64,000 nt of DNA from the NCBI GenBank assembly GCA_028279045.1, contig JANQSZ010000023.1, forward strand, positions 248 to 64,247, in the 5' to 3' direction. The DNA is from Candidatus Nanoarchaeia archaeon (GTDB lineage: Archaea > Nanobdellota > Nanobdellia > Woesearchaeales > UBA10216). How positions within the stretch are numbered: the first letter of the stretch is position 1; each line of letters opens with the position of its first letter. A program made the translations under genes and the position numbers. The notes below the pieces were generated by a model. That model made no database searches, was not told the origin of the DNA, and saw only the letters and a list, made by a program, of their open reading frames with translations. Below are positions 5,921-39,675 of the stretch, in pieces.

Positions 5921-5941
5921 GAAAGCGTGTTTTGACGTACT

Positions 5942-7285: not shown

Positions 7286-7341
7286 GACTTTCGATTATTT
7301 CTCACGAGTTCTTTTGAAGAATGAAACAAGAAAAGAAGTAT

Positions 7342-7468
7342 GCGCCCGCAATGGCGTATCTGGTCACGCCGCTAGATTCAGACTCTAGTGTCAGTAAGGA
7401 CTTCGGGGTTCAAATATCTTTCGGCTGCAGATATGGTTCGGAAGGTTGAAATTCCCCGTGCGGGCGCT
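7342..7468 (+). tRNA. tRNA-Leu (anticodon CAG) with a probable non-canonical intron of ~38 nt in the T-arm region; boundaries approximate
   Basis: Acceptor GCCCGCA/UGCGGGC, D-stem GGCG/CGCC, anticodon stem CUAGA/UCUAG with loop UUCAGAC, short variable hairpin GUC-AGUAAG-GAC. T-arm 5' half CGGGG-UUCAAAU is separated from its 3' half CCCCG by an insertion with an internal hairpin (ATATCT...AGATAT). Confidence 0.5.
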
Positions 7469-7490: not shown

Positions 7491-7515
7491 AACTCCAGTT
7501 TTTTCAACGTATTTT

Positions 7516-7598
7516 GCCGGGATCGCGTAATCTGGTATCGCACAGGACTGGAACTCCTGGCCCTTCGGGGCGTCTGGGTTCAAATCCCAGTCCCGGCG
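7516..7598 (+). tRNA. tRNA-Ser (anticodon GGA)
   Basis: Acceptor GCCGGGA/UCCCGGC, 3-bp D-stem, anticodon stem CAGGA/UCCUG with loop CUGGAAC, long variable arm GCCCUUCGGGGCGU, T-arm CUGGG-UUCAAAU-CCCAG, discriminator G. Confidence 0.8.
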
Positions 7599-7658
7599 TC
7601 AGCAGGGAGTGGGGCTACGAAACGTAAGTTGAGTGTGTCCCAGTCCCGGCGTTTCAAA
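7599..7658 (+). repeat. conserved tRNA-Ser 3'-trailer module (copy 1): hairpin plus a 14-nt duplicate of the tRNA 3' end, abutting the downstream ATG
   Basis: TCAGCAGGGAGTGGGGCTACGAAAC...GTTGAGTGTGTCCCAGTCCCGGCGTT is about 85% identical to 21739-21794. CCCAGTCCCGGCG repeats tRNA positions 7586-7598, and GGGAGTGGG (7605-7613) can pair with CCCAGTCCC (7639-7647). Confidence 0.6.
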
Positions 7659-8252
7659 ATGACAAAAACACATATCATATTGGCGGTATTGGTTTTAACC
7701 CTCGCTGCATGCACGAGTCAGCAAAACCTAGAATCGCCGTACGTAGGAGAAGAAACGCGAGACATCAAGTATTTATCAGAAGCTGATGTTGAAGGTTTGC
7801 AAGCTGGCATCGGAACACCTCTTGGCGGTCTTGCTAAACCCGCTGAGTTGAATGGCTTGCCAGGCCCACGTCACGTATTGGACGCAGCAGATGCACTTGA
7901 CATAACACCGCAACAGGAAGAGTCAATCCAATTTATCTATGATGAAATGAACACCGATGCGAAGCTGTTGGGCGCTGATTTGATTGCAATTGAGCAGGAA
8001 ATCGATGACGGGTTGTCGAGCGGAATGATAACAGAAGAACAATTGGAAGTGTTGCTCAATGAAAGCGCAGAAATCTACGGTCAGCTACGATATGTTCATT
8101 TAGTTGCTCATCTCCAGACTGCAGACATTCTGTCCCAATCTCAGATTGATGCATACAATACTTTGCGAGGCTATGACAAAGCTGATCCTTGTGAGAACGT
8201 TCCAGAAGGCCACCCTCCTGAGATGTGGAAATTACACCACAATTGTCCTTAA
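7659..8252 (+). CDS. predicted lipoprotein, hypothetical (possible LTxxQ/Spy-like periplasmic fold)
   Basis: Start chosen at the second in-frame ATG (MTKTHIILAVLVLTLAAC..., lipobox LAAC). The upstream ATG at 7629 lies inside the conserved tRNA-trailer module. Confidence 0.55.
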   Translation: MTKTHIILAVLVLTLAACTSQQNLESPYVGEETRDIKYLSEADVEGLQAGIGTPLGGLAKPAELNGLPGPRHVLDAADALDITPQQEESIQFIYDEMNTDAKLLGADLIAIEQEIDDGLSSGMITEEQLEVLLNESAEIYGQLRYVHLVAHLQTADILSQSQIDAYNTLRGYDKADPCENVPEGHPPEMWKLHHNCP

Positions 8253-9179: not shown

Positions 9180-9192
9180 TTTATTTTTTTAA
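9180..9192 (+). terminator. oligo-T tract (TTTATTTTTTT) immediately after the stop of the 8463-9179 gene
   Basis: Archaeal terminators are oligo-T runs; this one lies between convergent genes. Confidence 0.35.
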
Positions 9193-10896
9193 TTCTTTGA
9201 CCAGCTGTTTGGTTGCCTTAACAGCTGCCTTTTCCTGTTTAGCTAGCGAAGCTTCTATACCTGTCAGCGATCTCCGACGTGGTTCGCCTTCAAGTCGGGC
9301 CATTTTCTTCTTCAAGTAGCTTGCGTCAAATCCTTCGCTCAGAGATTTGGTTTGGCGTTCAATTTTACGCAAAGCGACTTTAGAAAGCAGTTTGTCAGAC
9401 ACTGTTGCTTTCGAAACAGCAGAGATAGCCGCAGTTGTCTCCTTCTCCAATCGTTTGGCTTGTCGTTGCGTTGCGTATTCATGCAAGTCCAGCAACATGC
9501 GCTTTGATTGAAAGAGCGTAGCACGTTGTGCGTTCAACAATTGCTGTCGAGATGATTCTATTCTTCGATATCCAGTGTTGATTCCTTTCACTGTGTTACC
9601 CATCATCAATCTGGTTGGATCGACAGCAATCAGTTGCACAAACAGTTGTCGTGTATCATGCATGTCTTGTGGCGGTGTAACTTTCTTGATGTATCTCAAG
9701 AATCCCAATACAACAATCAATCGCAGTCCTGCAGAAAGCACAAACATGCTGAAATATATCGAGGATACGCCAGCGGGCGGTGTCCACGCCGGTAAAGTTG
9801 TAACAAGCAATCCGCCGAGTGTTGCTCCAACAAGCATTCCTATGCTCGTTACCACACTAATGTATGCAGTACTGTGTGCTCTCCTGTGTTTTGGAACCGC
9901 GTCAAATAAGTACGTCACGCTTCCTAGATTGAAGCCTGCCCAGATGAATCCGCCAAGCAGTTGAATAAATCCAAGATAGAACACGTTTGTTGATATCAGC
10001 CACAATAAAGGCAAAATAGGAGTGGCAAGTCCGGTGATGAGCACAATAGTCCGCGTTCCGAGTTTGTCTGCATGCCTCGACCAGTATAACGACATCAACG
10101 CATTCGCCAATACAGAGACGGCAATCAACAATGTATACGTCAGGTAACTCAGTCCTAAATCGCGAAGCATGTATACAGCAAAGAAAGGCGCCGATACGTA
10201 GATAGCGAGGTAAAAAAACAGCAAGAACAGCAAGAATTTACCAAACGCCGTTCCCAGAACGCCTTTTATCTCGGCACGTGCACTAACTTGCGGTACGTCT
10301 TCTTGTTTTGGATCATGAATTTGGGTAAAGAAATAGAAACTCGCTAATCGTGCTACAAAGGAAACAGTAAACAGACCAGCAAACATTTCAAAGAGGTATT
10401 CCTCTGGTGCGTACGACAACAAGAATCCTGCTGTGATAATAATGCCAAACGTAATGAACGAGTTCATCCGGGATGTTTTGCCAAAGAATCTATTCCGTTT
10501 CTCCAATGGTAGTAAATCTCCAACCCAGCTGTTCCAGAGCGGTGCCATTAATCCGTCAAATGCAGAAAACGCTATTCCTGTAATTACCACGAGCAGCGGA
10601 TTTCTCAGCCAGAGTGCTATAGCAATAAACACCAGCCACGTCAAGGATTGTAACGCAACCGCGATCAGGATAGTACGCTTTCTTGCTAGTTGTTTATGAA
10701 ATGCCAAAGAACTAGTCAGCTGTACCAGTGCATTCACTAGTTGTGGCAGAGAAGCAAGCAAACTAATGAGCAGAGGAGAAGCTCCTAACGCGATGATGAA
10801 CGGACTGAAGAACCGACCACGGATACCTGACGGTATGGTGTTTGATCGTGATTCATAACGAACATTCTTCAGACTCTTTCGCGTTAAATCATCCAT
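9181..10896 (-). CDS. MFS-type transporter with C-terminal cytoplasmic coiled-coil extension
   Basis: 571 aa with about 12 hydrophobic helices in the first ~430 aa, then a charged Lys/Ala/Glu-rich tail. Confidence 0.65.
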   Translation of the reverse strand: MDDLTRKSLKNVRYESRSNTIPSGIRGRFFSPFIIALGASPLLISLLASLPQLVNALVQLTSSLAFHKQLARKRTILIAVALQSLTWLVFIAIALWLRNPLLVVITGIAFSAFDGLMAPLWNSWVGDLLPLEKRNRFFGKTSRMNSFITFGIIITAGFLLSYAPEEYLFEMFAGLFTVSFVARLASFYFFTQIHDPKQEDVPQVSARAEIKGVLGTAFGKFLLFLLFFYLAIYVSAPFFAVYMLRDLGLSYLTYTLLIAVSVLANALMSLYWSRHADKLGTRTIVLITGLATPILPLLWLISTNVFYLGFIQLLGGFIWAGFNLGSVTYLFDAVPKHRRAHSTAYISVVTSIGMLVGATLGGLLVTTLPAWTPPAGVSSIYFSMFVLSAGLRLIVVLGFLRYIKKVTPPQDMHDTRQLFVQLIAVDPTRLMMGNTVKGINTGYRRIESSRQQLLNAQRATLFQSKRMLLDLHEYATQRQAKRLEKETTAAISAVSKATVSDKLLSKVALRKIERQTKSLSEGFDASYLKKKMARLEGEPRRRSLTGIEASLAKQEKAAVKATKQLVKELKK

Positions 10897-10929: not shown

Positions 10930-11223
10930 TTAGACCGAGTGTATCAACACATCTGCAACAATAAAGATAATTGCCAGTCCGATGATTGGCGGAATTATGA
11001 ATCCGAATGTGAGTAGAATAACACTCCCTGCTCCAAGCGTGCCGAGCCAGCACTTCGGACAGGTAAATCCTTCTGAAGCCAGAAAAGAAAGCTCAAACAA
11101 GAATAAGCAGATTGCAGCAATCCGCCCAACCCACGTTGTTGAGACTAGCCCGATCACCACAGCAATAAACACTGCATAGTACATCATTGCTTTCGTACTA
11201 AATGCAAAAACTTTGAGGTCCAT
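10930..11223 (-). CDS. small integral membrane protein
   Basis: 97 aa, three hydrophobic helices. Confidence 0.4.
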   Translation of the reverse strand: MDLKVFAFSTKAMMYYAVFIAVVIGLVSTTWVGRIAAICLFLFELSFLASEGFTCPKCWLGTLGAGSVILLTFGFIIPPIIGLAIIFIVADVLIHSV

Positions 11224-11260: not shown

Positions 11261-11524
11261 CTAGTATTTCAGCAACACTCTACCAAAAACGTCTGACCGC
11301 TGCACTGGTCCAAGCGTAGCGCTGTGTCCTTCATTGTCTCCTTTCACAATGAATCCAGCTGGCGTGATATCAAGAATTCTTTTCAAGTACGTAATGCCGC
11401 GCTGCTTGAACACAATAACGTCATTTTTCTTCAGCATGCATTTCCCCCAGACAATAACTCTATCTCCTTCTTTGAATTTGGGTTCCATGCTATGCCCTGA
11501 AATTTTAAATCGAGAAAAAATCAT
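11261..11524 (-). CDS. sodX: NiSOD maturation endopeptidase (S26 signal-peptidase-like)
   Basis: 87 aa with the catalytic Ser motif GHSMEP and S26-like core GDRVIV...ILKR. Lies directly downstream of sodN with a 4-nt overlap. Confidence 0.65.
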   Translation of the reverse strand: MIFSRFKISGHSMEPKFKEGDRVIVWGKCMLKKNDVIVFKQRGITYLKRILDITPAGFIVKGDNEGHSATLGPVQRSDVFGRVLLKY

Positions 11525-11952
11525 TGTTTGGACTCAACAAATATCTTGCCAAGTTCATCAACCATTTGCTTCAGCTTCTCAGCTGCTTCAACGTTTATTT
11601 CTCTCTTGACGATAGAACATTGCTTTGCTGCCTTATGCACTTTCTCAGTCAAGTCAGGCCACTTTTCAAAATGCTCTGGCTTGAAGTAGTCTGTCCACAG
11701 CACAAGGATTTCATGCTTGCACTTTTGCGCAAACTCCTCTTTGACTGCAGTCATTCTCGCAATGGTGTGTTCTCTTTCAACAGTATCATCGCCAGACAAC
11801 TCCTTCAACTTGGTAGTCATCATATAGGCAGTTTGCGCAGCCCACTTCATGGAGTCTGGCTCGTAGACACCGCAAGGGATGTCACAGTGCGCATATGCCG
11901 TCTCTGGTTCGCTAAATTCAGTCTTTCGTAAAAATGAACTAATCATACTCAT
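11521..11952 (-). CDS. sodN: nickel-containing superoxide dismutase precursor
   Basis: 143 aa. Pro-peptide MSMISSFLRKTEFSEPETAYA is followed by HCDIPCGVYEP, matching the NiSOD nickel hook HCDLPCGVYDP. Remainder forms a four-helix bundle typical of NiSOD. Confidence 0.85.
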   Translation of the reverse strand: MSMISSFLRKTEFSEPETAYAHCDIPCGVYEPDSMKWAAQTAYMMTTKLKELSGDDTVEREHTIARMTAVKEEFAQKCKHEILVLWTDYFKPEHFEKWPDLTEKVHKAAKQCSIVKREINVEAAEKLKQMVDELGKIFVESKQ

Positions 11953-12036
11953 AATGAATCACCCAGCTGATGGGAAAGCGCTGCGCATAAAAAGATTTGC
12001 CCTGATTTATATACTAATCACGTGCCAGAATCAGCA

Positions 12037-12049
12037 ACCTTTAAAAAGC
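12037..12049 (+). promoter_or_regulatory. TATA box (CTTTAAAAAG) 24-33 nt upstream of tRNA-Glu
   Basis: AT-rich box at the correct spacing. Confidence 0.4.
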
Positions 12050-12071: not shown

Positions 12072-12146
12072 GCCCCGTTGGTGTAGTCCGGCCAATCATC
12101 CGGCCCTTTCGAGGCTGGGACTCGGGTTCGAATCCCGAACGGGGCA
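12072..12146 (+). tRNA. tRNA-Glu (anticodon UUC)
   Basis: Acceptor GCCCCGU/ACGGGGC, anticodon stem CGGCC/GGCUG with loop CUUUCGA, T-arm UCGGG-UUCGAAU-CCCGA, discriminator A. Confidence 0.8.
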
Positions 12147-14958: not shown

Positions 14959-15936
14959 ATGGATCTCGACAATATTGCATTGACATTTCCTGGACAGAAT
15001 TCTCATTTTCACGGTATGGGCTCTGATTTGTACATTTACGACGCTGCCCGAGTAGTTATTGACACCGCTACCGAAGTCATGGGCGACGTGCTAGGATTAA
15101 ATTTACGCGAAGTGATGTTTAGTGCAAATGATGAACGGTTAAGTCTCGGTCCTGTCGCACAAACTGCAATACACACAGGGAGCATGGCCACATACGCAGT
15201 GTTGAACGATATGTACGGCGACAAAATAAAAGCAGTTGCAGGGCACTCATTCGGTCAAGTAGCTGCAATGGTTTCTGCTGACGTGCTTTCTCCCCAAGAT
15301 GGATTAGTACTAGTTGAACGCCGGGCAACTTTCGCAGACAATTTGTTTCCTGCCACAGAAGAAGATCCTGTGTATATGATAACCATGCTCGGCACTGAGG
15401 CAAATACTGAATTTAAGGACCAGGTAGAACAAGAGTGTGAATATGTTTCTGCAGAGAAAGGGTATGTCGGGCTCGCAACAATAAATTCTCCCACAATGAT
15501 CGTTATTTCTGGAAATCCAGAGGCAGTGGAAACCGCAGCGAGTAATCTTCGTGCCCGGACAAAGAATCTTGATCGTGATCATCGGATACGATACATTCCA
15601 ACCGATATCAAAGGCCCATTCCACACACCCCTAATGGATGATGTGGAAACAGATTTAGCAGTCGTAATGCAAGACATGCAGTTTCACGAGCCGTCAAAAG
15701 TGGTAATTGTGAACGGCATTCCAATGACAACAGGATTAGATAGAGCATATTTGGAAAATACAACAACGGTTGTTGATTTCCGTGCATCACTTGAACATTT
15801 GTTTGCTAGTCCCAATTACCAACACATCATTCAATCAGCTCCCGGCGATGCACAAGGAAAGATTGCTCGTCGTGGTTATGACATGCGTGGCACAGAATTC
15901 CACCTTGCGGACGAACTTCTTAACTTAGCCCGTTAA
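14959..15936 (+). CDS. acyltransferase, malonyl-CoA:ACP transacylase (FabD)-like
   Basis: 325 aa. N-terminal FPGQNSHFHGMG matches the FabD FPGQGSQ motif, and GHSFGQ is the active-site Ser motif GHSxG. Confidence 0.65.
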   Translation: MDLDNIALTFPGQNSHFHGMGSDLYIYDAARVVIDTATEVMGDVLGLNLREVMFSANDERLSLGPVAQTAIHTGSMATYAVLNDMYGDKIKAVAGHSFGQVAAMVSADVLSPQDGLVLVERRATFADNLFPATEEDPVYMITMLGTEANTEFKDQVEQECEYVSAEKGYVGLATINSPTMIVISGNPEAVETAASNLRARTKNLDRDHRIRYIPTDIKGPFHTPLMDDVETDLAVVMQDMQFHEPSKVVIVNGIPMTTGLDRAYLENTTTVVDFRASLEHLFASPNYQHIIQSAPGDAQGKIARRGYDMRGTEFHLADELLNLAR

Positions 15937-18604
15937 TTTGTATGTACCAAGGTTCAGCATCTGTTGCAGAGCTAATTGTTTTTCGCATTGCCCCTCCAGG
16001 TCCGCTGCTTCCTTGTAGCCCAATTCTCCAGTAGTTCACTTGTCCTGATTTTTGATTATCTGATCCTCCAAAAGGATCTGTCTCAACTGTAAATACTACA
16101 TTCGCAGTATCACCACGTGTTGTTCGCCAGTGATTCAGCACATCAGTAATGTCAACACAATCATACCCATTGGAAGTCCAAGCGCTTGCAGTTGATTCGA
16201 CAGAGCCGCGGCCATACGCTTCAAGTGTAGCCATGTTGTCATTGGCAACGTCAATAAGAGAATCAATAGCAGTTACCGTTACCACATCTGACGGCGTTCC
16301 TTCAACGCTTTCTCGTGACGCACAGAATACTGCATCCGTAACTACAGCATTGACCGGTATTCCTGAGTATCCTATGCATTCAAAATATGTTCTGTAAGGG
16401 AAATACGTGTATCGTTGATCTGCCATGGCACAAGTAAGTTGTACTGGCGTTGTTCCTGAAATCGTAAAATCAACATAATCAGCGCGGCACCATGAGGAAG
16501 CAGTTCCACACGTTGCTCCAACGACAACAGGATCGTTCTCATCAATATTCACCGTTACCATCTCTGTTCTCCATCCCGTTACACCATTTGGTGTGGTTGT
16601 CCACGTATGTTCCTCAGTTCCATCAACAAGTAACCGGTAGACGTCTCCTGTTCCGTCATCATCTTCATCACAGTAGCGAACCGCAACATCATACGTTCCA
16701 CTGCCTTCAGGGAAATTAGCTAGAGTAGCAGTGGTTTCAGACGAGTGTGTTCCTTCGTGTCGTGCACATTCCCCGCCAGATGGGCTGCCACAAACACAGT
16801 TTGTTGTTGCCGTAAAGCCACCGGCATGCGTCAAATCTTCCATTTCAACAAAGTACGGTGCAGGTGCTGCTCCTGCTGAAACATCAAAGGAAATTAAGTA
16901 GTCAACAGTGTTCGCATTTGAGTCTGTATCTTCGCACCGGACATAGATAGTATACGCTTGTCCATCCGATAGTGGACCGTATGTATCCGAATGTGACGTT
17001 CCACCTGTAGTGCTAAATGTGTTCGCCATTACAGAAAAGTCTTCGCCGCCATCTGTATCCCATTTACATGTTGCTGCTTCATCAGTGTTAACAGAAATTG
17101 GTGTGCTTGTAGTTCCGCTAGCAAGCGTTCCCGACGGTGATCCGCCTGAGATAACTGGAGGTACGCCAGGTGCAACATCAAACGTTATGATAAAGTCTGC
17201 TGTGTTAGCGTTACCACTTGAGTCTTCGCAGCGTGCATAATAGGTGTATGCTTGTCCATCAACAAGGCCATTGAGTGATTCATTGTGTGTTATGCCGTCC
17301 GAAACAGTGAATGTGTTAGCCATCGAAGCATAATCTATTCCCGAGCTCGTGTCAAATTTACACGTAGCTGCTTCGTTGGTTGTAATGGTCAAATTTGTAT
17401 TAGTAGTTCCCGTCGGTAATGTTCCTGTTGGCAATCCATTGCTCAGAACAGGAGGAGTGACATCCGGCCCTATTTCAATTGTGAATGAGAGAACTGCATC
17501 AGTTGGGTTCTGGTTCAAGTTAATAGATTGGTCTTGACATCGCACATAATATATTTCCGTATCCCCGTCAGACAATCCAGATATGGAATCAGTATGTGTA
17601 ATCGAATTCGTTGTAACAAACAAGTTCGGCATGGAATCATATGCAGTTCCCGGTACAACATCATATCGGCAATCTGCAAGTTCATCTGTGCTCACAACTA
17701 AGTCCACGTTTGTAGTTCCCGACGGTAAAAATCCGCTTGGATCCAATTGAACGATCTGTGGTGGTGTTGTATCAGGTGGCCGAACCGTAAATTGAATGAC
17801 AAAATCGAGTGGGTTTTGATTTTGATTCGGAGATTGGTCTTCACATTTAGTGTAGTAGCGGTACGTTGTGTCCTCAACAAGGCCGCTGATTGTTTCACGA
17901 TGCTGTACACCGCCTGTTGTACTAAAATCACTGTCCATATCATCGTAATTTTCTCCAGGGTAAGGATGGAACTTACAATCTGCAGGTTCGTTTGTATCGA
18001 ATCCCATGATTACTTGAACAGTATCGCTTGGCAGTGAAGTATCAACAGGCAACGGATTGATCTGTACAGGAGGTGTCCAGTCTTCTGGGTCTGGTGCATC
18101 TTGTTCTTCTTGTTCAACATTTGCAATCAGTGTTCCTGACGCTGTGTGGGAATTAGCTGCGGAAGAGTCTTCGTGGTGCCACGACACTTCTATGTTGAAT
18201 TTAGCTTGTTCGAATGAAATGTCATTGATGTGCTCACAATCAGCTTCTGCAGATGCCCAATGATCGAGCGTGAACGCTTGCCTGTCACCTGTTCGCATTA
18301 ACACACCGCCAGGATCAATGAACACGCAACGTAATTCAAGCTCATCGCTGATTGCGGTTACATTCGTAACTCGTATCAAATCAGACCGATCATTCTCCAG
18401 TAAAATATACACTTCGTCTGCATTCGAGTCGATTCGTGCGTCCAGACATTCAATGTTCTGCGCAATAATGCATGATTCAGGTAAAACTTTGTCAACATCA
18501 ACTAATCCATAATAGTACACTACAGAGACTGTAGCCATGACTATCAAAATCGCCCAGCCGTAGGTGAGCATAAACTCCATCGCTGCTTGTGCTTTCATGG
18601 ACAT
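15920..18604 (-). CDS. giant pilin-fused surface protein (class III signal peptide + pilin domain + four ~70-aa Cys-containing repeats + C-terminal domain shared with the next gene)
   Basis: 894 aa. N-terminus MSMKAQAAMEFMLTYGWAILIV matches the EppA-type prepilin motif QxAMEF. Residues 30-150 align with the major pilin at 55327-55860 (LPE.C...C.D....ADEVYILLEN). Four internal repeats TxxC(K/R)(F/W/Y)D...MAN.F....G..H......L.DG..Y.YY.RC.D are present. Confidence 0.7.
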   Translation of the reverse strand: MSMKAQAAMEFMLTYGWAILIVMATVSVVYYYGLVDVDKVLPESCIIAQNIECLDARIDSNADEVYILLENDRSDLIRVTNVTAISDELELRCVFIDPGGVLMRTGDRQAFTLDHWASAEADCEHINDISFEQAKFNIEVSWHHEDSSAANSHTASGTLIANVEQEEQDAPDPEDWTPPVQINPLPVDTSLPSDTVQVIMGFDTNEPADCKFHPYPGENYDDMDSDFSTTGGVQHRETISGLVEDTTYRYYTKCEDQSPNQNQNPLDFVIQFTVRPPDTTPPQIVQLDPSGFLPSGTTNVDLVVSTDELADCRYDVVPGTAYDSMPNLFVTTNSITHTDSISGLSDGDTEIYYVRCQDQSINLNQNPTDAVLSFTIEIGPDVTPPVLSNGLPTGTLPTGTTNTNLTITTNEAATCKFDTSSGIDYASMANTFTVSDGITHNESLNGLVDGQAYTYYARCEDSSGNANTADFIITFDVAPGVPPVISGGSPSGTLASGTTSTPISVNTDEAATCKWDTDGGEDFSVMANTFSTTGGTSHSDTYGPLSDGQAYTIYVRCEDTDSNANTVDYLISFDVSAGAAPAPYFVEMEDLTHAGGFTATTNCVCGSPSGGECARHEGTHSSETTATLANFPEGSGTYDVAVRYCDEDDDGTGDVYRLLVDGTEEHTWTTTPNGVTGWRTEMVTVNIDENDPVVVGATCGTASSWCRADYVDFTISGTTPVQLTCAMADQRYTYFPYRTYFECIGYSGIPVNAVVTDAVFCASRESVEGTPSDVVTVTAIDSLIDVANDNMATLEAYGRGSVESTASAWTSNGYDCVDITDVLNHWRTTRGDTANVVFTVETDPFGGSDNQKSGQVNYWRIGLQGSSGPGGAMRKTISSATDAEPWYIQINGLS
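16880..17101. repeat. near-identical intragenic repeat shared by the two giant pilin-fused genes (copy 1)
   Basis: Encodes PISVNTDEAATCKWDTDGGEDFSVMANTFSTTGGTSHSDTYGPLSDGQAYTIYVRCEDTDSNANTVDYLISFDV. The counterpart at 20146-20370 is over 80% identical, and the antisense frames also match (…SPPSVSHLHVAAS…). Confidence 0.6.
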
Positions 18605-21600
18605 GTTGTTTTTGTTATGTATCCTGATGATCTTGTTGCGCCGACGATCGATCCATCAATGCCGTTTCCTGAGTAGTCTACTACTGTGCTGCCTGTTCCG
18701 TCAAGATGATATCCGGCTACAAGATCTGTTGTGTCACATCCAAAATCATTGACACCTGCTGCATGATTTGCTGCAAGTTCTGGTTGTGATAGTGCGCGAT
18801 CGTAAACTCTTACTTCGTCTATAAAGCCAGTGAAGTCGCTATCCAGTCCACCGCCCCATCCAGATCCTGTGTCTGCCCTTCCTATGGCAGCCCATTGAGC
18901 AGCGCCTGTTCCAGGTGTTGTTCCCGGTGCATTGCTGTTCACTTCATTCCCATTAATGTACACGCGCAGTGTCGTGCCATCCCAGGTTCCAGCAACGTGC
19001 TGCCAAATTCCTTGTGTGATCGTTCCGCCTTTGACTGTTCTTGCGCTTGATCGCCAGAAACCTAATTCAAGTTGATTTCCTTCAACATACATTGCGCGGT
19101 CTCCGGTGTTGATTCTTTCTTCGATAATGTTTCCATCGGCTGCGCTCGGGTTGATCCATGCTTCGTATGTAAACGATGCTGGTGTGGCGAGTGAACTAAT
19201 GTCAAGATAATCGCCTGATCCATCAAACTGAAATGCTTTACTTGTTGACGTGCTAATTACGTTCAACGTAACCTGTTGCGGTACACCTGCATTTCCTCCC
19301 GCACCATCTAGGTCGAAAGGTGTTGCTACAATATTGTATGTTCCAACTGCAGGTGTCCATACATGGTAGTTTCCGCTTGCATCGCCAGCGTACGCGTACG
19401 GTGCACTATCTTCGATTCTTGTGAGAACGTGCTGAGTCTCGAATACAACGCTTTCTACACTGCCGGAGGTAACTGCTTGTATATTCAAATTTGGATACAT
19501 TGCTAAGTCCACCGTTTCTGTTGCACTCATCGGATCATAACCAGAAATTGGCAAGTCTGTATCCGCATTAATCAAATACAATTCTGTTACAGCTGTTGTT
19601 TGTGCTTCCGACGCGTCGTTGATTTGAATGTACCAAGGATTATCTACAGTGGTTGAATTAATTGTTTTTCGAACTCGAGGGGATGAAGACGATTGTTCCC
19701 CGATTCTCCACCTGTGCGTACTGCCAGCAACTGCGTTGCTTGATCCTCCGAAAGGAGTTGCTTCGATGGAAAAGTACACGTTGGAGCTATCTCCCTTGGT
19801 AACTCTCCAATGATTCAACACATTCGTAATGTCAACACATTCGTAACCAGGCGTTGACCATCCACTCGTCGATATAACAGGACCTTTTGCTGTTCCTTCT
19901 AGCGTAGCCATGTTATCACTATCAACATTAATCACTTCATCGATAGCTGTAATTGTAATGGTGTCTGTTGGCGATCCTTCTGTTACATTCAATGCTGCAC
20001 AGAATACTGCGTCGTTAACCGTGTTTGATGCTGCTAAGCCAACGTAGCCGCGACATTCAAAATAAGTTCTGTATGGATAGTATGTGTATCGCTGATCTGC
20101 TTCTGTGTTGCAATACAGTCTGTGTGTTGTAAAAGTCGATACATCTACATCAAAACTAATCAACGCATCAGCAGGGTTTGCGTTACCAGAGCCATCTTCA
20201 CATCGTACATAGATAGTGTATGCTTGTCCGTTTTGCAATGGCGGATTGTACGTATCCGAGTGTGACGTTCCTCCAGTCGTACTAAACGTATTCGCCATTG
20301 CAGCGAATGCTTCTCCACCATCGGTATCCCATTTACATGTCGCAGCTTCGTTTGTCGTAACCGATATAGGTGTGCTTGTTGTTCCTGCAGCGAGTGTACC
20401 TGTAGGTAAGAGATCGCCGAGCACTGGTGGTGTGCTATCTGAGAGTTCAATTTCAACAGTGATTGTAAAGTCATCAGGATTAGAATTACCAGCCCCATCT
20501 TCACATCGTACATGATGGTCAATCATATCCCCGTCGTTAAATCCAGAGACAAGTGTGCTATGTGCTGTTCCGCCTGTGGTGTCAAAGTTGTTGGCCATCA
20601 AGACAAAACTAATTCCTGGGACAGGGTCCCATTTGCAAATAGCATTTTCATCAGTAGTCAATGCAATGTTCACATCTGTTGTACCGGGTGGTTGTGGTAC
20701 TGATGGGAGTCCATCGCTTCGTACTGGAGGATCAGTATCTGGAGGCAGTGCAACATCGAACGTAATGAGCTCCCCAGTTGGATTCATATTGTTGCTTGCA
20801 TCTCTGCAACGAACGTAGTAATTGTAAGTAACACCGTCAGAAACAGCAACGTCGAACTCAAACACATTACCTCCCATGTGAATAAATGTGTTTAACATCG
20901 ATGGGTATGGAATATCTGAGTCTTGGTTGAATCGACATGTCGCTAATTCATCCGTACTCACAGAAAGTGTTGCCGTCGTTGTGCCTGCTCCAAGTGTTCC
21001 CATCGGACCAATGACAGTGATAACTGGCGGATCCGGGTCAGGCGGAGGTGCAACGCCAACTGGTCGCACGTTGGCGAGCATTGTTCCTGTCGCAACATGC
21101 ACAAAGTCATCAGGCACCGAAGCACCCAGTGATGTTTCTGATCTCCAGTCTACTTTCAAATCAAACAGAACACGTTGTTCTCCGTAGTTTGCAAGCGATC
21201 CGCAATTGTCAAGGTGAAACAATTCTGTTTCTCCGTTTTCAACAAGCGTAGAGGTTGGTGTAAGAATATTACAAACCAATTCTCCATCTCTGGTTGTCGC
21301 GGTAATCTGATCGATGAGTACATTATGTCCTTTCAAATTGGTAATATCTAGAAAAACATCATTGCTTGCTTCATCAACAACAAAGTCCTTGCAATAGAGG
21401 TTTCCTCCAAGATCACATTCTTCTGGGAGTGCCTCTGAAGCGTCAATATCAGCGAAATATGCAATTCCCGCTATCACACCAACCGCGATCAAGATAGCCC
21501 ACCCATAGGTGATCAAGAATTCCATAGCATACTGTGCTCTAGCGATACTCTTCAACCTCTTTTTGCGCTTGCGCTTACTCCTTTTCTGGTATGTTTCATT

Positions 21601-21621
21601 TAAAAAGCTTTGCCGTCGCAA
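18595..21621 (-). CDS. giant pilin-fused surface protein paralog with C-terminal LamG/concanavalin-like domain
   Basis: 1008 aa. The ORF begins with TTG at 21619-21621. The QxAMEF prepilin motif (ARAQYAMEFLITYGWAILIAVGVIAG) sits about 30 aa in, so the true start is uncertain. It has a pilin-like domain, three Cys-containing ~70-aa repeats, a middle region homologous to the C-terminus of the 894-aa protein, and a C-terminal LamG-like segment (FDGSGDYLDIS...AWINPS...IDEVRVYDRALS). Overlaps the upstream paralog by 10 nt. Confidence 0.7.
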   Translation of the reverse strand: MRRQSFLNETYQKRSKRKRKKRLKSIARAQYAMEFLITYGWAILIAVGVIAGIAYFADIDASEALPEECDLGGNLYCKDFVVDEASNDVFLDITNLKGHNVLIDQITATTRDGELVCNILTPTSTLVENGETELFHLDNCGSLANYGEQRVLFDLKVDWRSETSLGASVPDDFVHVATGTMLANVRPVGVAPPPDPDPPVITVIGPMGTLGAGTTTATLSVSTDELATCRFNQDSDIPYPSMLNTFIHMGGNVFEFDVAVSDGVTYNYYVRCRDASNNMNPTGELITFDVALPPDTDPPVRSDGLPSVPQPPGTTDVNIALTTDENAICKWDPVPGISFVLMANNFDTTGGTAHSTLVSGFNDGDMIDHHVRCEDGAGNSNPDDFTITVEIELSDSTPPVLGDLLPTGTLAAGTTSTPISVTTNEAATCKWDTDGGEAFAAMANTFSTTGGTSHSDTYNPPLQNGQAYTIYVRCEDGSGNANPADALISFDVDVSTFTTHRLYCNTEADQRYTYYPYRTYFECRGYVGLAASNTVNDAVFCAALNVTEGSPTDTITITAIDEVINVDSDNMATLEGTAKGPVISTSGWSTPGYECVDITNVLNHWRVTKGDSSNVYFSIEATPFGGSSNAVAGSTHRWRIGEQSSSSPRVRKTINSTTVDNPWYIQINDASEAQTTAVTELYLINADTDLPISGYDPMSATETVDLAMYPNLNIQAVTSGSVESVVFETQHVLTRIEDSAPYAYAGDASGNYHVWTPAVGTYNIVATPFDLDGAGGNAGVPQQVTLNVISTSTSKAFQFDGSGDYLDISSLATPASFTYEAWINPSAADGNIIEERINTGDRAMYVEGNQLELGFWRSSARTVKGGTITQGIWQHVAGTWDGTTLRVYINGNEVNSNAPGTTPGTGAAQWAAIGRADTGSGWGGGLDSDFTGFIDEVRVYDRALSQPELAANHAAGVNDFGCDTTDLVAGYHLDGTGSTVVDYSGNGIDGSIVGATRSSGYITKTTCP
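20146..20370. repeat. near-identical intragenic repeat shared by the two giant pilin-fused genes (copy 2)
   Basis: Encodes PISVTTNEAATCKWDTDGGEAFAAMANTFSTTGGTSHSDTYNPPLQNGQAYTIYVRCEDGSGNANPADALISFDV, matching 16880-17101. Confidence 0.6.
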
Positions 21622-22709: not shown

Positions 22710-22828
22710 TGCCGCTGCGGGGATCTGAACCCCGGACCTCGTGATGTCCCAGTTAGCTAGTCATCGGCAAAAGCCTCAGCACTCATTATTATGAGTCACG
22801 CGCTCTAACCAGGCTGAGCTACAGCGGC
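22710..22828 (-). tRNA. tRNA-Met (elongator) or tRNA-Ile2, anticodon CAU, with a ~44-nt intron at the canonical 37/38 position
   Basis: Reverse complement has acceptor GCCGCUG/CAGCGGC, D-stem GCUC/GAGC, anticodon stem CGUGA...UCACG and loop CUCAUAA. The loop is interrupted by TAATGAGTGCTGAGGCTTTTGCCGATGACTAGCTAACTGGGACA. T-arm CGGGG-UUCAGAU-CCCCG. Not an initiator (G1-C72, AU-containing anticodon stem). Confidence 0.7.
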
Positions 22829-22863: not shown

Positions 22864-23027
22864 TAGCGCTTCCACGTAACAAAGAGAAAGTATGCCATGT
22901 ACACTAGAACGAATGCTCCCCAGAGCCGAGATCCTTCAAGTTTCACCATAAATTGTAGCGCAAACAACAGCAATGCAGCAACCACAATGCTCATCGCCAT
23001 GACGTCTTTGCTCAACACGAATGTCAT
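22864..23027 (-). CDS. possible small membrane protein (54 aa)
   Basis: Unlisted short ORF MTFVLSKDVMAMSIVVAALLLFALQFMVKLEGSRLWGAFVLVYMAYFLFVTWKR directly downstream of the HIT gene. Hydrophobic; support is weak. Confidence 0.25.
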
Positions 23028-23431
23028 AGATGTTTCTTGATGGATTCAACGATTTTATCCATCTCCCCTTCTTCGTATTCTTTTTGCGGCCAGTGTTGCA
23101 GACCATCTCCCTTAAAGCGAGGGATGATGTGAAAGTGCGCATGATGCACTGTCTGTCCAGCTGCTGATCCAACATTTGTTGTGATGTTGACGCCTTGTGC
23201 TCCCATTGATTCCATGATTGCAGGACTCAACACCTTAATCACGTGCGCGTAGTCTTTCGCCAAGTCATCCGGCATATCTAGAAAAGTAGCGTGATGATCT
23301 TTCGGAATTACAAGCGTATGTCCTTGATGCACCGGCCCAATATCGAGCATCGCTACAAAGAAATCATCTTCGTAGATGAGCGCTGCCGGTACTTCTTTTG
23401 CTATGATTTTACAAAAAATACATCCTTCCAT
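23024..23431 (-). CDS. HIT-family nucleotide hydrolase (histidine triad protein)
   Basis: 135 aa with Zn-finger-like CIFCKI at the N-terminus and the histidine triad VHHAHFHIIPR. Confidence 0.85.
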   Translation of the reverse strand: MEGCIFCKIIAKEVPAALIYEDDFFVAMLDIGPVHQGHTLVIPKDHHATFLDMPDDLAKDYAHVIKVLSPAIMESMGAQGVNITTNVGSAAGQTVHHAHFHIIPRFKGDGLQHWPQKEYEEGEMDKIVESIKKHL

Positions 23432-23464
23432 ACACTAGTGAGAAGAATCCACCTTATTAAACTT

Positions 23465-24388
23465 TTAGATCCAGGAGCGGAGTTTCCAGATTTGCTTCAA
23501 CTGGTTACTCACACGGTGATGCGCCACAGAAATCAATACACCGATCACAATCATGAATCCGCCAACTACATCTTTCTCTGTCGGTAGTTCTCGAAAGATG
23601 AAAAACACGTACAAGATAACAATAAATGGATCAATAGTTCGAATGACAGCGGTTTTCGACACGTCAAGATGTTCATATGCTTTGAAGAACAAATAGAATG
23701 ACACGATAGCCGTCAATATTCCAGTAAAAAAGATAAGCGGAAGTAAATGCAGCGGCAACCAAATAAATTCAACAGAGTCGAACAGCGTCGTGACAAGTCC
23801 AACTCCTAAAGAGATGGAAAGCAGTGAGAAGATCACACGCATCTGAACTAAAACAAGTGGATGTGTATCCTTCACAAACATTTTCGATGCAAAATGATGT
23901 AATGCAGCAGCCAATGCTCCCATTACCGGAAGTAAAATCCACAGCCCAGATCCGTTTCCATTGGTATAACTCAGTACAACAGTTCCCGCAACCGCAAGGC
24001 CAGCTCCTAATATTTCCACTTTACTTAATCGTTCCTTCAAGAAAAGAACTCCCAGCAAGATAATGAACAACGTCCCCAGTCGCCAGATAAACGCAAGCAA
24101 GTTTGGGCCAATCAAGAACATTCCAGAGCTCCAACCAAGTGCAGCAAGCGCATTTGTTACTCCTAAAATCAATCCGTGCTTCCAATGTTTCTTCAGCACG
24201 CTATGAAAGTCCAAATCTTTTCGAACAAATACCAATATTGTTGCAGCGATTGCTCCGCCGATAAACCACTGCAGCATCATACTCCACGGGTTGGTATGTT
24301 CCAAAAATATTTTACCGAAAATAAACCCAGTGCTAATTATTAAAGAGCCTGCAATGACGTACAATATTCCAATGTGTTCTTTTTTCAT
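23465..24388 (-). CDS. EamA/DMT-family transporter
   Basis: Ten hydrophobic helices in two EamA-like halves. Start set at MKKEHIGIL (24388) because the longer ORF would overlap tRNA-Ala. Confidence 0.65.
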   Translation of the reverse strand: MKKEHIGILYVIAGSLIISTGFIFGKIFLEHTNPWSMMLQWFIGGAIAATILVFVRKDLDFHSVLKKHWKHGLILGVTNALAALGWSSGMFLIGPNLLAFIWRLGTLFIILLGVLFLKERLSKVEILGAGLAVAGTVVLSYTNGNGSGLWILLPVMGALAAALHHFASKMFVKDTHPLVLVQMRVIFSLLSISLGVGLVTTLFDSVEFIWLPLHLLPLIFFTGILTAIVSFYLFFKAYEHLDVSKTAVIRTIDPFIVILYVFFIFRELPTEKDVVGGFMIVIGVLISVAHHRVSNQLKQIWKLRSWI

Positions 24389-24393
24389 GAGAA

Positions 24394-24467
24394 TGGACCG
24401 AGCGGGATTCGAACCCGCAGTCTCCCCCAAGCCAAGGGGGCACGATACCGGATTTCGCCATCGGCCC
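24394..24467 (-). tRNA. tRNA-Ala (anticodon GGC)
   Basis: Reverse complement has acceptor GGGCCGA/UCGGUCC with the diagnostic G3:U70 wobble, anticodon stem CCCCC/GGGGG with loop UUGGCUU, T-arm GCGGG-UUCGAAU-CCCGC, discriminator A. Confidence 0.85.
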
Positions 24468-31806: not shown

Positions 31807-32207
31807 TTCTTTCCCCGGTACCAACCAATGACAACCGGAGTTGCAATGATAGCACCTACTGCAATCCAGAAAAACGGATCGATATAGTATGCAAGAATAT
31901 CTACTGGTGCGCCTGCAATAAGTATCGTCGGCAAAATCAGTGCTGAATCAAGTAGCAAACCAACGCCAAAGAACACTAATCCCAAATACAGTCCATTCTG
32001 CAGGGTTGGTTTTTCTTTGTTGAAGAACCACCACGATATTGCACCGATAATGACGATACCAACCAGAATGTTAACTATCCACAGCGTTGCACCGACTTCC
32101 TCCCCGCCAAACACGTCAATTCCAAGTAAGCCTGCAACAGCAACGCCTGCTACAAAAGATACAATGTATGTTGCAATTCCAACAAGTATGGCAAGTTTCC
32201 AGTTCAA
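31803..32207 (-). CDS. integral membrane protein (4 TM helices)
   Basis: 134 aa. The 4-nt overlap with the upstream giant gene suggests an operon. Confidence 0.5.
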   Translation of the reverse strand: MNWKLAILVGIATYIVSFVAGVAVAGLLGIDVFGGEEVGATLWIVNILVGIVIIGAISWWFFNKEKPTLQNGLYLGLVFFGVGLLLDSALILPTILIAGAPVDILAYYIDPFFWIAVGAIIATPVVIGWYRGKN

Positions 32208-35200
32208 TCTTTTTTCCTCCCGTGGAATATGGCAAAGACAACAATTGCGATTATCAAGAGCGCAATGCCAATGAAAATTTCGAATGGGAATCGTGCTGGT
32301 TCATCAGGTATTGGTTCTGGAGGTTCAGGTTCAGGCTCTTCTTCTGCAATTTCTGGCGGTGCTGATGGCACATCAACGACTTCAACTTCTTCTTCAACTT
32401 CAACACCGATTGCAAATGTACTGAATCCTGGTGAGCGTGCTTCAAACACGTGGTTGAGCGAATCAGAGCTCACGAATTCTGTAGGGAGTGATTGCCATGC
32501 TCCTGTTGAGTATCGATACAAGATAACGTCTGCTACCGCTGCTCCTCGTTCACTTAGCCAGGTACGGTCAACGCTGAACGTAAGTACAACGTCATCGATT
32601 GCAGAACTTGGTATCTGCACGCTAATGTCAATAAACTCGTACACTTCTGCATCTAAGCTTCCGCCTTCGTCCGGTGCAGTATTTAATGTTGTAATGGCAA
32701 AGTCTGCGTTTTGCGCGATTGCTTTCATGTCAATGTCAATGTTGCGCAGTGCAATCTTTTCATTCGGAATAGCAAATGAGGTTGTTCCAACAGGCAGTTC
32801 TGTGTAGAACCGTGAGTACGTTACTCCTTTTGGTATGACCGCTGCGCCGCCACCGCCTCCTCCGCCAGAACTACCGCCGCCTCCACCGCCGCCGCTGCTT
32901 GAACTGCTCGGTGAAGTGCTTGCGAGGTATGATGAGAATCCTAGTCCGACGGCATCTGGTACAACACATGTTGTCGTTGTTGTACCTTCAACACAATCCA
33001 GGTTGTCCGTTACTGTTTGACAGTTTTCTCCAGAATCATCACAGTGTTGGATAACGTCGCCTGCTTCTGGAATAACAACAGTTACTTCCTCAACACCAGT
33101 CTTTTGTTTCAAGTTTTGGTATTGATTAGCATCAAAGCCAACGTAGTCATCTGCATTGACAAATTCAGATACATTGAGTGTTTGTTTTTCAAAGATATCC
33201 AGACCACTAAAGGTAATTTGTGATGAGTTATCTGGTTGTGAGATCGTGATGTTCAGATCACTCAGGTGTTCTGTGGATGCTTTCAATGCATACTGCCCGC
33301 TGTAGTTTGTCAAGTTAAGTTGCGGCATGTGTATGACCCATCCGTCTGGAATGTCAAGTTTGAACGTAACGTTTGAATGGCCTGTTGACGTGGTAACATT
33401 ACTACATCTACTGATTGCACAGTTTCCAGCAACATCACAGGATTGAAACTTATAGAAATAAGTAGTATTCGCACTCAATCCGTTAATATCTGCAACGTGG
33501 TGCGGTCTGTAATCAGTTAAGCTCTCATCATCAAGCAAGCCACCGTCCAAGATAGTTGTGTTGATGTTCTGACAGCTGCTGTTCTGGTTATAGAACAGAA
33601 CACTACCGTTTGCTGGTTCGTTAGTGTTGAAAATGAACGAGAGTTGTGTTGGTACTTTATTGTTGATCTTGGTCGATACAAAACTTGGCGAACTGCTGTC
33701 ATCCTCTGCGCTTGAGAAGCTTCCATCACAGAAGAATGGATCGTACGCGCAATCCAAGTCGTCGCAATCAGTCAGTCCGTCACCGTCGTTATCCACCGAG
33801 TCAACGCATGCTGGTCCGAATTCTCCTGGGAAGAATCCAAACTGTTTGAACTTAGTACATTGTGGGTCATCACGATCTTCAGGGTTTGCACAATCCACGA
33901 GTTCCGCGTCAATTCCTTTGAAGTCTGCTGTGTTTGGCCCGACAGTATCATTTACGTTTGTCGTACTTCCACCTGCATCAGCTGCAGTAGCATAGGTGCG
34001 CCATCCTTCTTCAGTGTTTACGTTTGATTTTGCCACAAAGGTATCCTTATCAATTCCAAACATTGCGATGCCGATTTCTCCACACGCAACTTGTCTATCG
34101 GTCTTGAACGGTACGTTACTTGCAACCCATGATCCGCTGCTACATTGTTGCGTTAGCGTTGTTACAGTAACATCTCCTGTTTGGTCTATTTGGGATACGA
34201 GTTTGAACAAGTACTCAAATCCTGCAAGACTAGTGTCGTCATCTGCTGTACATCCTCCCGTTTCAGTTCCGTCGGTGTCAAGATAAATATAGTATCGTGA
34301 TGTGTTTTCTCCTTGTCCTGTCCCTCCTGATGAGAGCGGTTGGTTCTTACAGTAAGATGATCCTGAAAGATCTGCAAGTTGGATACCGTAAATATATGCG
34401 TTTTCTGTCTTGAGCACACCCATTCCGTTGATGTCCACGAATTCTGAGCTAACATCGCCTGGTGGATCGATTGCTAGGATTACTGGCGGTCCTGATTCCA
34501 GGTCGCTAAAGAATTGTTGTTGGAATTGATCATCGCAGAATCCAGGTGCAGTGAGCACGCGAGTTGCGTTTGTACCGTCACCTGCAGTTGCTGATTCATT
34601 AGCATGTTCTCCAAGATTACCGTCGATAGCGACAGTTGCGACTTGACTCGTTGTCGAAACAATGGTGTTACCCAAAGTTCCATCAAGGTTGAGTTGATCA
34701 GTTGACACTTCCCAAAGCGCTTCAAGTTCTCCTGTTGTTGTGTTCAAGAAATAATGAACAGTGCTGCTATCACAAACACTCGTTCCGTACTGATCACAAA
34801 CACCTGCTTCACAACTAGCATTCGTGTAGTTGTATTGCATCAGTCGCGTTCCTTCGCAGTAGAGATAACTCACATTCTGATCAAAGGTTTGTGCGCTTTC
34901 GTTAGATTGAATCATGTATAAGTATGACGACGCTGAACTCAAGTTGTACGTCGAGACACCGGTTCCTTCAATAGGTTTCTGCAATCCAAATGCAATCCAT
35001 TGTGTTCCTGGTTGATGGAAATCTTCTGGGCTCGTTGATCCGTTCAATGCTTTGAGTGGTCCGAAAGGTTGTGTTTCCCAGACGCAATTGCTGTTAGCTT
35101 GACAAGACGCAATGTCTCCATCATCATCTGGGCATCCTCCGATGAAATTGGCTGGTGCACACAAACCGGCTTGCCAGACACAGCTTCCTGCAGCAAGTGT

Positions 35201-38940: not shown

Positions 38941-39675
38941 TCACTTCTTCTTGCGTTTTCGTGGCTTCTTCGCTGCCGAAGCAGGAATCGCAGTCTTCAC
39001 TGGCTTCTTTTTGTCTTTTCCTGCGAGTAAGAAAGCTCCTCCAATAGCGAGAAGGATGATAAGCAATACAATTGAAACAGCTCCTGAAGAAAGCTCTCCT
39101 TCACTTGGTACCTGTGGTTCAGGTTCCTCAACTTCTTCTGGCTGTTCTGGTTCCGTATCCTCTACAACAACTTCAAATGCAGGTGGTGTTGGTGGCAAAT
39201 CTGCTGTTCTACAAGGACATTCCCCTGCACATTCAACACCCACGTTGTCCAGTTCACTAAAGCATTCGTTGCTGTACGTCTGTCCATTTTCTCCACAGAC
39301 CGGCTGATAGTTTTCAGGACAGAAGTCATTATCTTCTTGGATGTCCTGCGGCGCTTCAATGTTTGGTTCTGCTGTTTCTTGCACATTCACATACCCAACG
39401 CCATTAAACACAACGTCAACGAGTTGATATCGTCCTGGTTCATCAAAGGTAACTTCTGTACTTTCTCCTGGTTCAAATCGCTCAGAAGTAAAGTACATTG
39501 TGCGGATGCGCAATACAGAATACGAAGGGTTGTCGTTTACAAATGTAACCGTTTCGCCTTGATTGATTATGATTTCTTCGGGTTCAACAGTACCAGGTGT
39601 TAATGTCATGGTTTGAGCAGCGACAAATGAGCTCAGTAACAGAAACAGTACACTTACGATAATCGCTTTCCCCAT
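38941..39675 (-). CDS. secreted membrane-anchored protein with Kazal-type protease-inhibitor domain
   Basis: Signal peptide MGKAIIVSVLFLLLSSFVAAQ. Kazal signature CPENYQPVCGENGQTYSNECFSELDNVGVECAGECPC (C-x7-C-x6-Y-x3-C). C-terminal TM helix plus KKPRKRKKK tail. Confidence 0.6.
   Translation of the reverse strand: MGKAIIVSVLFLLLSSFVAAQTMTLTPGTVEPEEIIINQGETVTFVNDNPSYSVLRIRTMYFTSERFEPGESTEVTFDEPGRYQLVDVVFNGVGYVNVQETAEPNIEAPQDIQEDNDFCPENYQPVCGENGQTYSNECFSELDNVGVECAGECPCRTADLPPTPPAFEVVVEDTEPEQPEEVEEPEPQVPSEGELSSGAVSIVLLIILLAIGGAFLLAGKDKKKPVKTAIPASAAKKPRKRKKK

Follow-up and report, generated by a model that had tools for sequence, protein, structure and literature searches.

The 64,000-nucleotide stretch analysed here (the window; contig JANQSZ010000023.1 of Candidatus Nanoarchaeia archaeon) very probably carries an intact and functional two-gene module for nickel superoxide dismutase (NiSOD) in a Woesearchaeota-like DPANN archaeon, as judged from its sequence and from modelled structures. 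The module is composed of sodN, which encodes the NiSOD precursor, and a sodX-like gene, which encodes a putative maturation peptidase. Both genes had been pointed out by a previous reading of the same letters without database searches (the sequence-only reading), and its claims are considered below together with profile searches, structure models, phylogeny and the comparison of related loci. The coordinates of all the features are displayed in Table 1.

The NiSOD precursor and its SodX-like peptidase

SodN matched the Pfam family Sod_Ni (PF09055) with 131.6 bits (E = 3.3e-38, cutoff 25) and the curated NCBIfam equivalog TIGR02753 (sodN) with 143.4 bits (cutoff 90), covering positions 5-144 of the 145 in the profile. 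These family matches are far above chance level. Among the solved structures, phmmer aligned SodN with the NiSOD of Streptomyces coelicolor (1t6u, E = 1.5e-21) in such a way that precursor residue 22 corresponds to mature residue 1, and the hook HCDIPCGVY (precursor residues 22-30) aligns with residues 1-9 of 1t6u. The hook residues H1, C2, D3, P5, C6, G7 and Y9 are intact in SodN, which also has R39, E45, W59, D61, Y62, K64 and H67 (S. coelicolor numbering); across 127 aligned sequences, the hook residues are invariant and the others vary little or not at all. The 143-aa NiSOD with the hook HCDIPCGVYEP behind a pro-peptide of about 21 residues, as proposed by the sequence-only reading, is thus borne out by the open reading frame (ORF), by the position of the hook at residues 22-32 and by both profile scores. 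Moreover, the loss of the hook, which that reading had named as evidence to the contrary, was not found, since His1, Cys2 and Cys6 are all retained after alignment to 1t6u and to the 127 sequences.

The AlphaFold (AF2) model of SodN, built with 40 homologues, has a predicted local distance difference test (pLDDT) score of 89.8 and presents a flexible N-terminus followed by four long helices (residues 33-51, 58-89, 101-117 and 121-142). The best 16 PDB matches found by Foldseek with this model are all NiSOD, with TM-scores normalised to the target (TMt) of 0.87-0.93, and 0.89 for 1t6u. Judged by the curated models, the ligands and the predicted right-handed four-helix bundle fold, the window protein is a NiSOD.

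Concerning the leader, it is 21 aa long from the first ATG of sodN and 19 aa with the second ATG, which is the start chosen in a public prediction of 141 aa (P0001) for the same protein. The leaders of the 127 relatives have a median length of 21 aa and end in A/V-x-A ahead of His1; 'TAYA' is the most frequent tetrapeptide at this place, and positions -3 and -1 are taken by small residues. Because the leaders end in this way, the predicted cleavage site of SodN suits the small-residue rule at -3/-1 of S26 peptidases. The leader of the Streptomyces NiSOD is about 14 aa and therefore shorter than that of SodN.

The NiSODs of S. coelicolor and S. seoulensis (1t6u, 1q0d) share with SodN the hook H-C-D-x-P-C-G-V-Y and the four-helix bundle, here as modelled. 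In the Streptomyces enzymes a leader is removed to expose His1, and SodN likewise appears to have a leader before His22. Furthermore, Streptomyces encodes the cognate small S26 peptidase SodX (SCO5255) beside sodN, as the window does. On the other hand, SodN is only about 37% identical to the Streptomyces NiSOD in the mature region and has a 6-residue insertion in the loop between helices 1 and 2. In addition, the sodX-like gene of the window overlaps sodN by 4 bp, whereas the S. coelicolor pair is separated by an intergenic region (PMC3919588), and the window pair has an archaeal host and candidate archaeal promoter features. Another difference is the presence of two additional cysteines in SodN, C78 and C112 (mature C57 and C91), which are found in 120 and 126 of the 127 sequences, respectively, and occupy the positions of Ala51 and Met85 of S. 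coelicolor. They could represent a disulfide or redox feature specific to the clade of NiSODs from DPANN archaea, Patescibacteria and cyanobacteria.

Regarding the 87-aa protein encoded just downstream of sodN, it passed the cutoffs of both Peptidase_S24 (32.8 bits) and Peptidase_S26 (31.1 bits), the latter being one of the two Pfam families, together with Sod_Ni, with which the sequence-only reading had proposed to check the pair. Its match to the curated SodX model TIGR02754 spans positions 2-89 of 90. A word-based homology search returned only six other relatives, with identities of 34-44%, one of which is labelled by JGI as a 'nickel-type superoxide dismutase maturation protease'. In the family alignment of 13 members, 12 match TIGR02754 at E < 1e-3 (the best one at 6.5e-17), the residues S12, M13, P15, G20, K48, R49, G62, D63 and G81 are invariant and N64 is conserved in at least 90%, which draws the boxes GxSMxP, KR and GDN.

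The profile of this alignment matches the type I signal peptidase SpsB of Staphylococcus aureus, placing S12 on the catalytic serine and K48 on the lysine of 'KR'; the SpsB serine in question is the residue changed from Ser to Ala in PDB 4wvg. The AF2 model of SodX (pLDDT 78.9) is all-beta, and its best PDB match is SpsB, with a TM-score normalised to the query (TMq) of 0.77, followed by LexA and UmuD. The Ser/Lys motifs and the core beta fold are therefore common to SodX, the type I signal peptidases (S26; SpsB, 4wvh) and LexA/UmuD (S24). SodX differs from these proteins in its length of only 87 aa and in the lack of an N-terminal membrane anchor, no hydrophobic N-terminal segment being present in its sequence, and of the large domain II insertion. 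Unlike the signal peptidases, it would be cytoplasmic and dedicated to a single substrate.

The genomic context points in the same direction. A small S26-like gene follows directly 3' of sodN in nine out of nine distinct related loci, namely L002 (Peribacteria), L003 and L005 (Woesearchaeota), L006 (Patescibacteria), L007 (Curtissbacteria) and L004, L008, L010 and L011, with ORFs of 87-112 aa. The 4-bp overlap between sodN and sodX is identical in L001, L008, L009, L010 and L011. The overlapping S26-like peptidase of the SodX type with a GHSMEP motif, as described by the sequence-only reading, is consistent with the invariant Ser/Lys boxes and with the nine loci, and the 87-aa protein is SodX-like by sequence-predicted function and by context, though its score lies under the curated threshold of TIGR02754.

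Archaeal host and phylogenetic position

The host markers found in the window are a class-I LysRS (lysS_arch, 546 bits), a thermosome (804 bits) and an archaeal GluRS (gltX_arch, 486 bits). The window also bears SRP54, a ProRS with an archaeal/eukaryal C-terminal domain, TYW3 and a PACE-CTERM-like S-layer protein. SRP54, on whose neighbours the taxonomy of the host is based, is 64-70% identical to proteins of Woesearchaeota, Nanoarchaeota or 'archaeon', with one named match labelled 'bacterium'. The archaeal markers and the relatives of SRP54 identify the host as a DPANN archaeon of Woesearchaeota type without a close sequenced relative, and the description of the flanking genes as archaeal in the sequence-only reading agrees with LysRS, thermosome, GluRS and SRP54. 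Furthermore, a 119-nt tRNA that Rfam recognised has an intron of about 45 nt behind its CAU anticodon, which makes it an intron-containing archaeal tRNA-Met/Ile2, and tRNA introns are an archaeal trait. One public contig of 65,931 bp carries both SodN and SRP54. A small genome is plausible for this host by analogy.

The 120 best homologues of SodN, with identities of 47-63%, come from DPANN archaea, Patescibacteria and cyanobacteria in mixed order. The three groups are about equally close to it (52-65%), and the nearest other protein in a collection of 5.8 billion sequences is about 62-65% identical. Neighbour-joining (NJ) trees were built with a set of 127 taxa and a reduced set of 46 taxa. 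In the larger one, the window SodN grouped with six probably archaeal sequences next to the cyanobacteria with a bootstrap of 8%, and in the smaller one its sister varied, the cyanobacterial cluster being the most frequent (77 of 200 replicates). The Woesearchaeal and Aenigmarchaeal clusters reached 95% and 98%, and the placement of the window SodN stayed below 40% anywhere. The phylogeny with archaeal relatives proposed by the sequence-only reading was built and did not place this particular protein with support. A donor is not named here because the sister changes among replicates with a bootstrap below 40%. Three of the six tree relatives look archaeal by their context (an archaeal/eukaryal-type GluRS C-terminal domain, an FKBP26-type FKBP and TrmB/DUF7343), and the GluRS of these three is only 38% identical to that of the window.

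From the sequences, a transfer of the NiSOD family from bacteria to archaea is credible. The sequence-only reading had regarded NiSOD as uncommon in archaea and of horizontal origin, which fits the published phylogenies (bioRxiv 10.1101/2021.01.12.426412; PMC10783094), and no trace of a recent transfer was found in the window.

Other genes of the window are worth mentioning in relation to the host. A Peptidase_M23 protein (51330..52202, minus strand) and a weak SLT lytic-transglycosylase match just under the Pfam gathering score (56182..57498, plus strand) represent bacterial domains of murein-hydrolase type, whose target may be a bacterial partner or prey. A 244-aa protein (38941..39675, minus strand) combines a Kazal-type serine-protease-inhibitor domain with a weak, sub-threshold cupredoxin-like match, which is unusual in an archaeon. 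Moreover, there are large and mostly unannotatable proteins on the minus strand (15920..21621, 32204..37447, 47457..50744 and 43368..45074); the set includes proteins of 894 aa, 1008 aa (Laminin_G_3), 1747 aa and 1095 aa (weak CarboxypepD_reg) and the 568-aa PACE-CTERM-like S-layer protein. By their sequences, they are probably located at the cell surface, and such a set would be typical of the host-attachment repertoires of DPANN archaea.

Alternative explanations and gene neighbourhood

Several results weigh against an intact and functional module. SodX obtained 35.2 bits on TIGR02754, under its cutoff of 63.25, and generic signal peptidase I models scored it about the same or marginally higher. 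In SodN, the residues Glu17 and Arg47, which are the hydrogen-bond partners of His1 in Streptomyces, are replaced by Ala and Phe. The candidate promoter of sodN-sodX was assigned by eye only, and no NiCoT, HupE/UreJ, Nik or CbiM was found among the window ORFs of at least 150 aa or the immediate neighbours of the pair, so the search for nickel uptake genes suggested by the sequence-only reading was carried out within the 64-kb window and gave none recognisable. With respect to the His1 partners, the Glu17 position is Ala in 117 of the 127 relatives and the Arg47 position is Tyr, Phe or Trp in 110; the swap is a trait of the whole clade and hence no argument against membership of the NiSODs.

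The score of SodX opens the way to another interpretation, in which the gene for the 87-aa protein would be a signal-peptidase fragment, generic or decayed, and SodN would be matured by another protease or be inactive. In addition to the scores on both kinds of models, ten cyanobacteria that bear sodN lack sodX (PMC8346466). However, the protein covers the whole of the 90-position SodX profile, 12 of the 13 family members match TIGR02754, the catalytic boxes are invariant, the 4-bp overlap with sodN is kept in relatives and the gene stands after sodN in all nine loci; true signal peptidases have a membrane anchor, which SodX does not, and the leader of SodN ends in A-x-A. This explanation is accordingly considered very improbable. 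An artefact of assembly or binning, by which a bacterial sodN-sodX pair (from Patescibacteria or cyanobacteria) was joined chimerically into an archaeal contig, could be suspected from the rarity of NiSOD in archaea and from the nearest homologues, which include Patescibacteria and cyanobacteria at about the level of identity of the archaeal ones. Nevertheless, archaeal genes stand on both flanks in the window, the order sodN-sodX-97-aa ORF-MFS transporter gene recurs with its junction in an independent Logan assembly of run SRR20820731, and the spacer upstream of sodN is common to an archaeal-style tRNA-Glu promoter. Several metagenome-assembled genomes of Woesearchaeota and Aenigmarchaeota bear sodN-sodX as well, and NiSOD is also present in published high-quality archaeal genomes. 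The composition of the pair, taken up in the next paragraph, also speaks for the contig, and a chimera is extremely improbable.

The third explanation is a recent mobile cassette, an integrative element aimed at the adjacent tRNA gene that brought sodN-sodX. It would account for the position of sodN beside tRNA-Glu, and in one related locus (L011) an integrase, a TraG-like ATPase and AbiEii lie upstream of sodN and a 16-nt repeat flanks the pair. Against it, and against the artefact too, the GC profile of the window is flat (0.42-0.47) and the values of both genes are window-typical: with 44 window genes as reference and codon usage expressed as synonymous-codon likelihood, the z-scores of sodN and sodX are -0.01 and -0.97 for GC, 1.6 and 1.0 for GC at third codon positions (GC3) and 0.1 and 0.5 for codon usage. 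All of them are below 1.7 standard deviations, so a compositional island was rejected. There is no second copy of the tRNA-Glu 3' end in the window within 3 mismatches, the scan from 7 to 16 kb gave no relevant direct or inverted repeats flanking sodN-sodX, and an integrated element at tRNA-Glu was rejected on both grounds. No integrase domain was found in window ORFs of at least 150 aa or in the scanned smaller neighbours of the pair. Besides, sodN is on the 5' side of the tRNA, whereas elements usually insert at the 3' side; the integrase of L011 lies across a tRNA-Ser-like sequence from sodN-sodX; and, of the other loci, only L004 yielded a tRNA call, a tRNA-Gly lying far away. A recent cassette is for these reasons very unlikely. 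Since the composition of the pair matches that of the window and neither an integrase nor an att repeat accompanies it, any transfer into this lineage is old on sequence grounds, with no local trace of a recent one.

Two observations on mobile-element traces stand apart from this question. In the window, the 15-nt sequence TCCCAGTCCCGGCGT is repeated exactly at 7585-7599 and 7638-7652, its first copy being the 3' end of tRNA-Ser(GGA) (7515..7600) and its second copy, 53 nt on, the start of an ORF (7629..8252), which looks like an att-type scar of integration or excision at tRNA-Ser. In L011 (region 4649-7461 of JAIYMJ010000030.1, probably archaeal), the tyrosine integrase, the TraG-like ATPase and AbiEii are just upstream of sodN-sodX. 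This integrase abuts the 3' end of the tRNA-Ser-like sequence (about 5957-6085, minus strand; uncalled by ARAGORN and Rfam), the exact repeat AATAGCCAGATTATGC at 6065-6080 and 7446-7461 brackets sodN-sodX, and upstream of sodN some 75 nt (6127-6203) form a near-perfect hairpin. The L011 integrase was not taken as evidence of sodN-sodX being cargo, since the pair is on the opposite side of the tRNA-Ser-like sequence.

Table 1. Features of the sodN-sodX locus and of its surroundings in the window
Feature	Position	Strand	Basis or remark
sodN, 143-aa NiSOD precursor	11521..11952	-	ORF list, profile searches and structure model
Leader (pro-peptide) MSMISSFLRKTEFSEPETAYA, residues 1-21, ending A-Y-A	11890..11952	-	translation
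Nickel hook HCDIPCGVYEP, precursor residues 22-32, mature 1-11	11857..11889	-	re-translated from raw sequence
sodX-like maturation peptidase, 87 aa, without membrane anchor	11261..11524	-	ORF list and profile searches
Box B GHSMEP, residues 10-15, predicted nucleophile Ser12	11480..11497	-	re-translated; aligns with SpsB 'GESM.P'
Box D K48-R49, predicted general base Lys48	11378..11383	-	re-translated; aligns with SpsB 'KR'
ATGA overlap, sodN TGA / sodX ATG, 4 bp	11521..11524	-	coordinates; predicted coupling
GGTGAT Shine-Dalgarno-like motif, 5 nt ahead of first sodN ATG	11958..11963	-	sequence; predicted function
Two A/T-rich TATA-like boxes, TATATAAA (12006..12013) and CTTTTTAT (11987..11994)	11987..12013	-	candidate sodN-sodX promoter
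TTTAAAAA box, 24 nt before tRNA-Glu start	12040..12047	+	sequence
tRNA-Glu(UUC), divergent neighbour	12072..12146	+	
97-aa orphan three-helix membrane ORF, CPKC motif	10930..11223	-	next to sodX
MFS transporter, charged coiled-coil-like C-terminal tail about 170 aa past the core	9181..10896	-	beyond the 97-aa ORF
Intron-bearing tRNA, 119 nt, CAU anticodon then intron of about 45 nt	22710..22828	-	Rfam, 54.7 bits; missed by ARAGORN

The spacer of 119 bp between sodN and tRNA-Glu appears, from its sequence, to contain an archaeal promoter for each of these two genes, the two pointing in opposite directions. The distance of 24 nt between the TTTAAAAA box and the tRNA is typical for archaeal TATA elements. 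A sigma-70 promoter and terminator scan gave results at chance level, this model being unsuited to an archaeon. A 135-aa ORF antisense to sodN (11524..11931, plus strand) was rejected as a gene and taken as an artefact, since its tblastn matches in all related loci arise because it shadows the conserved sodN frame.

On the other side of the pair, the sequence-only reading had placed the MFS transporter directly beside sodX. The tRNA-Glu neighbour holds, but a 97-aa membrane ORF lies between sodX and the MFS gene. Both genes are co-directional with sodN-sodX with gaps of 33-37 bp, and for this reason the four genes could be read as a single operon in which the membrane pair supplies nickel. If this were true, it would mean a non-canonical nickel uptake in a DPANN cell without NiCoT, Nik or Cbi importers. 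Nevertheless, the 97-aa protein had no Pfam or NCBIfam match, the JGI metagenome scan gave no relative of it, and both genes were absent beside sodN-sodX in every other locus examined; they were therefore left out of the module. A nickel-uptake role for them found no positive support and is very unlikely. Under a milder alternative considered along with it, the lineage would represent a further independent DPANN acquisition of NiSOD, possibly from a donor of cyanobacterial type.

Apart from these genes, an EamA transporter and a HIT-family gene are neighbours in the window (23024..24430, minus strand), in L008 (4465-6297) and in L010 (2619-4468), with identities of 33-47%. The two genes are 2-6 kb from sodN-sodX in L008 and L010 and about 11 kb from it in the window.

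Proposed mechanism and significance

In the two-gene NiSOD module proposed here, sodN and sodX would be co-transcribed from the archaeal-type promoter in the tRNA-Glu spacer, and the ATGA overlap would couple their translation. SodN would be synthesised as an inactive precursor of 143 aa, and the soluble 87-aa SodX, by means of Ser12 and Lys48, is predicted from homology and gene order to cut after Ala21 at A-x-A and to turn His22 into residue 1. Nickel would then be bound by the N-terminal amine, the amide of Cys2 and the thiolates of Cys2 and Cys6, plus the imidazole of His1 in the oxidised state, and its binding would fold the nine-residue hook onto the four-helix bundle. By analogy with the Streptomyces enzyme, and considering the ligands and the predicted fold found here, cycling between Ni(II) and Ni(III) would convert superoxide into O2 and H2O2. 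The module may thus give an oxygen-exposed archaeon with a small genome an iron-free superoxide defence. The gene family would have come into archaea from bacteria, in this lineage long enough ago for a full adaptation to the host.

NiSOD is often the sole superoxide dismutase (SOD) in small genomes, and marine cyanobacteria have a candidate nickel permease gene near sodN-sodX. The window module differs from that arrangement in that no nickel-transporter family is recognisable beside it. The sodN-sodX pair itself is alike in the window and in Prochlorococcus/Synechococcus, where activity depends on the peptidase (Eitinger 2004), and the cyanobacterial cluster, although without statistical support, is the commonest bootstrap sister of the window SodN. 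The dependence of NiSOD on its cognate peptidase is established (Eitinger 2004, as cited in PMC3919588; PMC8346466).

Archaeal NiSODs, including inter-domain acquisitions in Woesearchaeota, were already published in 2021 and 2023, and the window is a further example of them. Sutherland et al. (bioRxiv 10.1101/2021.01.12.426412; Geobiology 2021) reported NiSOD in 26 archaeal genera, robust deep nodes in the NiSOD trees and multiple transfers from bacteria to archaea, two of them leading from Patescibacteria into Woesearchaea and another one reaching Poseidoniales. NiSOD was later described in DPANN archaea including Woesearchaeota and Aenigmarchaeota (PMC10783094, 2023). The published NiSODs of Woesearchaeota, Aenigmarchaeota and Patescibacteria resemble the window case in the enzyme, the mixed clade, the DPANN host and the proposed bacteria-to-archaea transfer. 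The window SodN differs from the published DPANN proteins in that its identity to other proteins of the 5.8-billion-sequence collection does not exceed 62-65% and that it does not group robustly with the well-supported Woesearchaeal or Aenigmarchaeal cluster. sodX is not discussed in either of these two works, where the term does not appear at all.

The picture published in 2021-2023 is unchanged by this locus, which adds a divergent, intact case to a list of archaeal NiSODs that is still short. Across the boundary between bacteria and archaea the maturation protease accompanies NiSOD, which is a small addition and not a new concept. The pair could be used as a candidate archaeal NiSOD/SodX pair for expression and could mark oxygen exposure in the lineage. 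DPANN and candidate phyla radiation (CPR) genomes from oxic groundwater commonly have SOD genes (PMC9938205), and the module described here supports the idea of an iron-free defence against superoxide that is common to ultra-small DPANN archaea and to CPR bacteria in habitats near oxygen.

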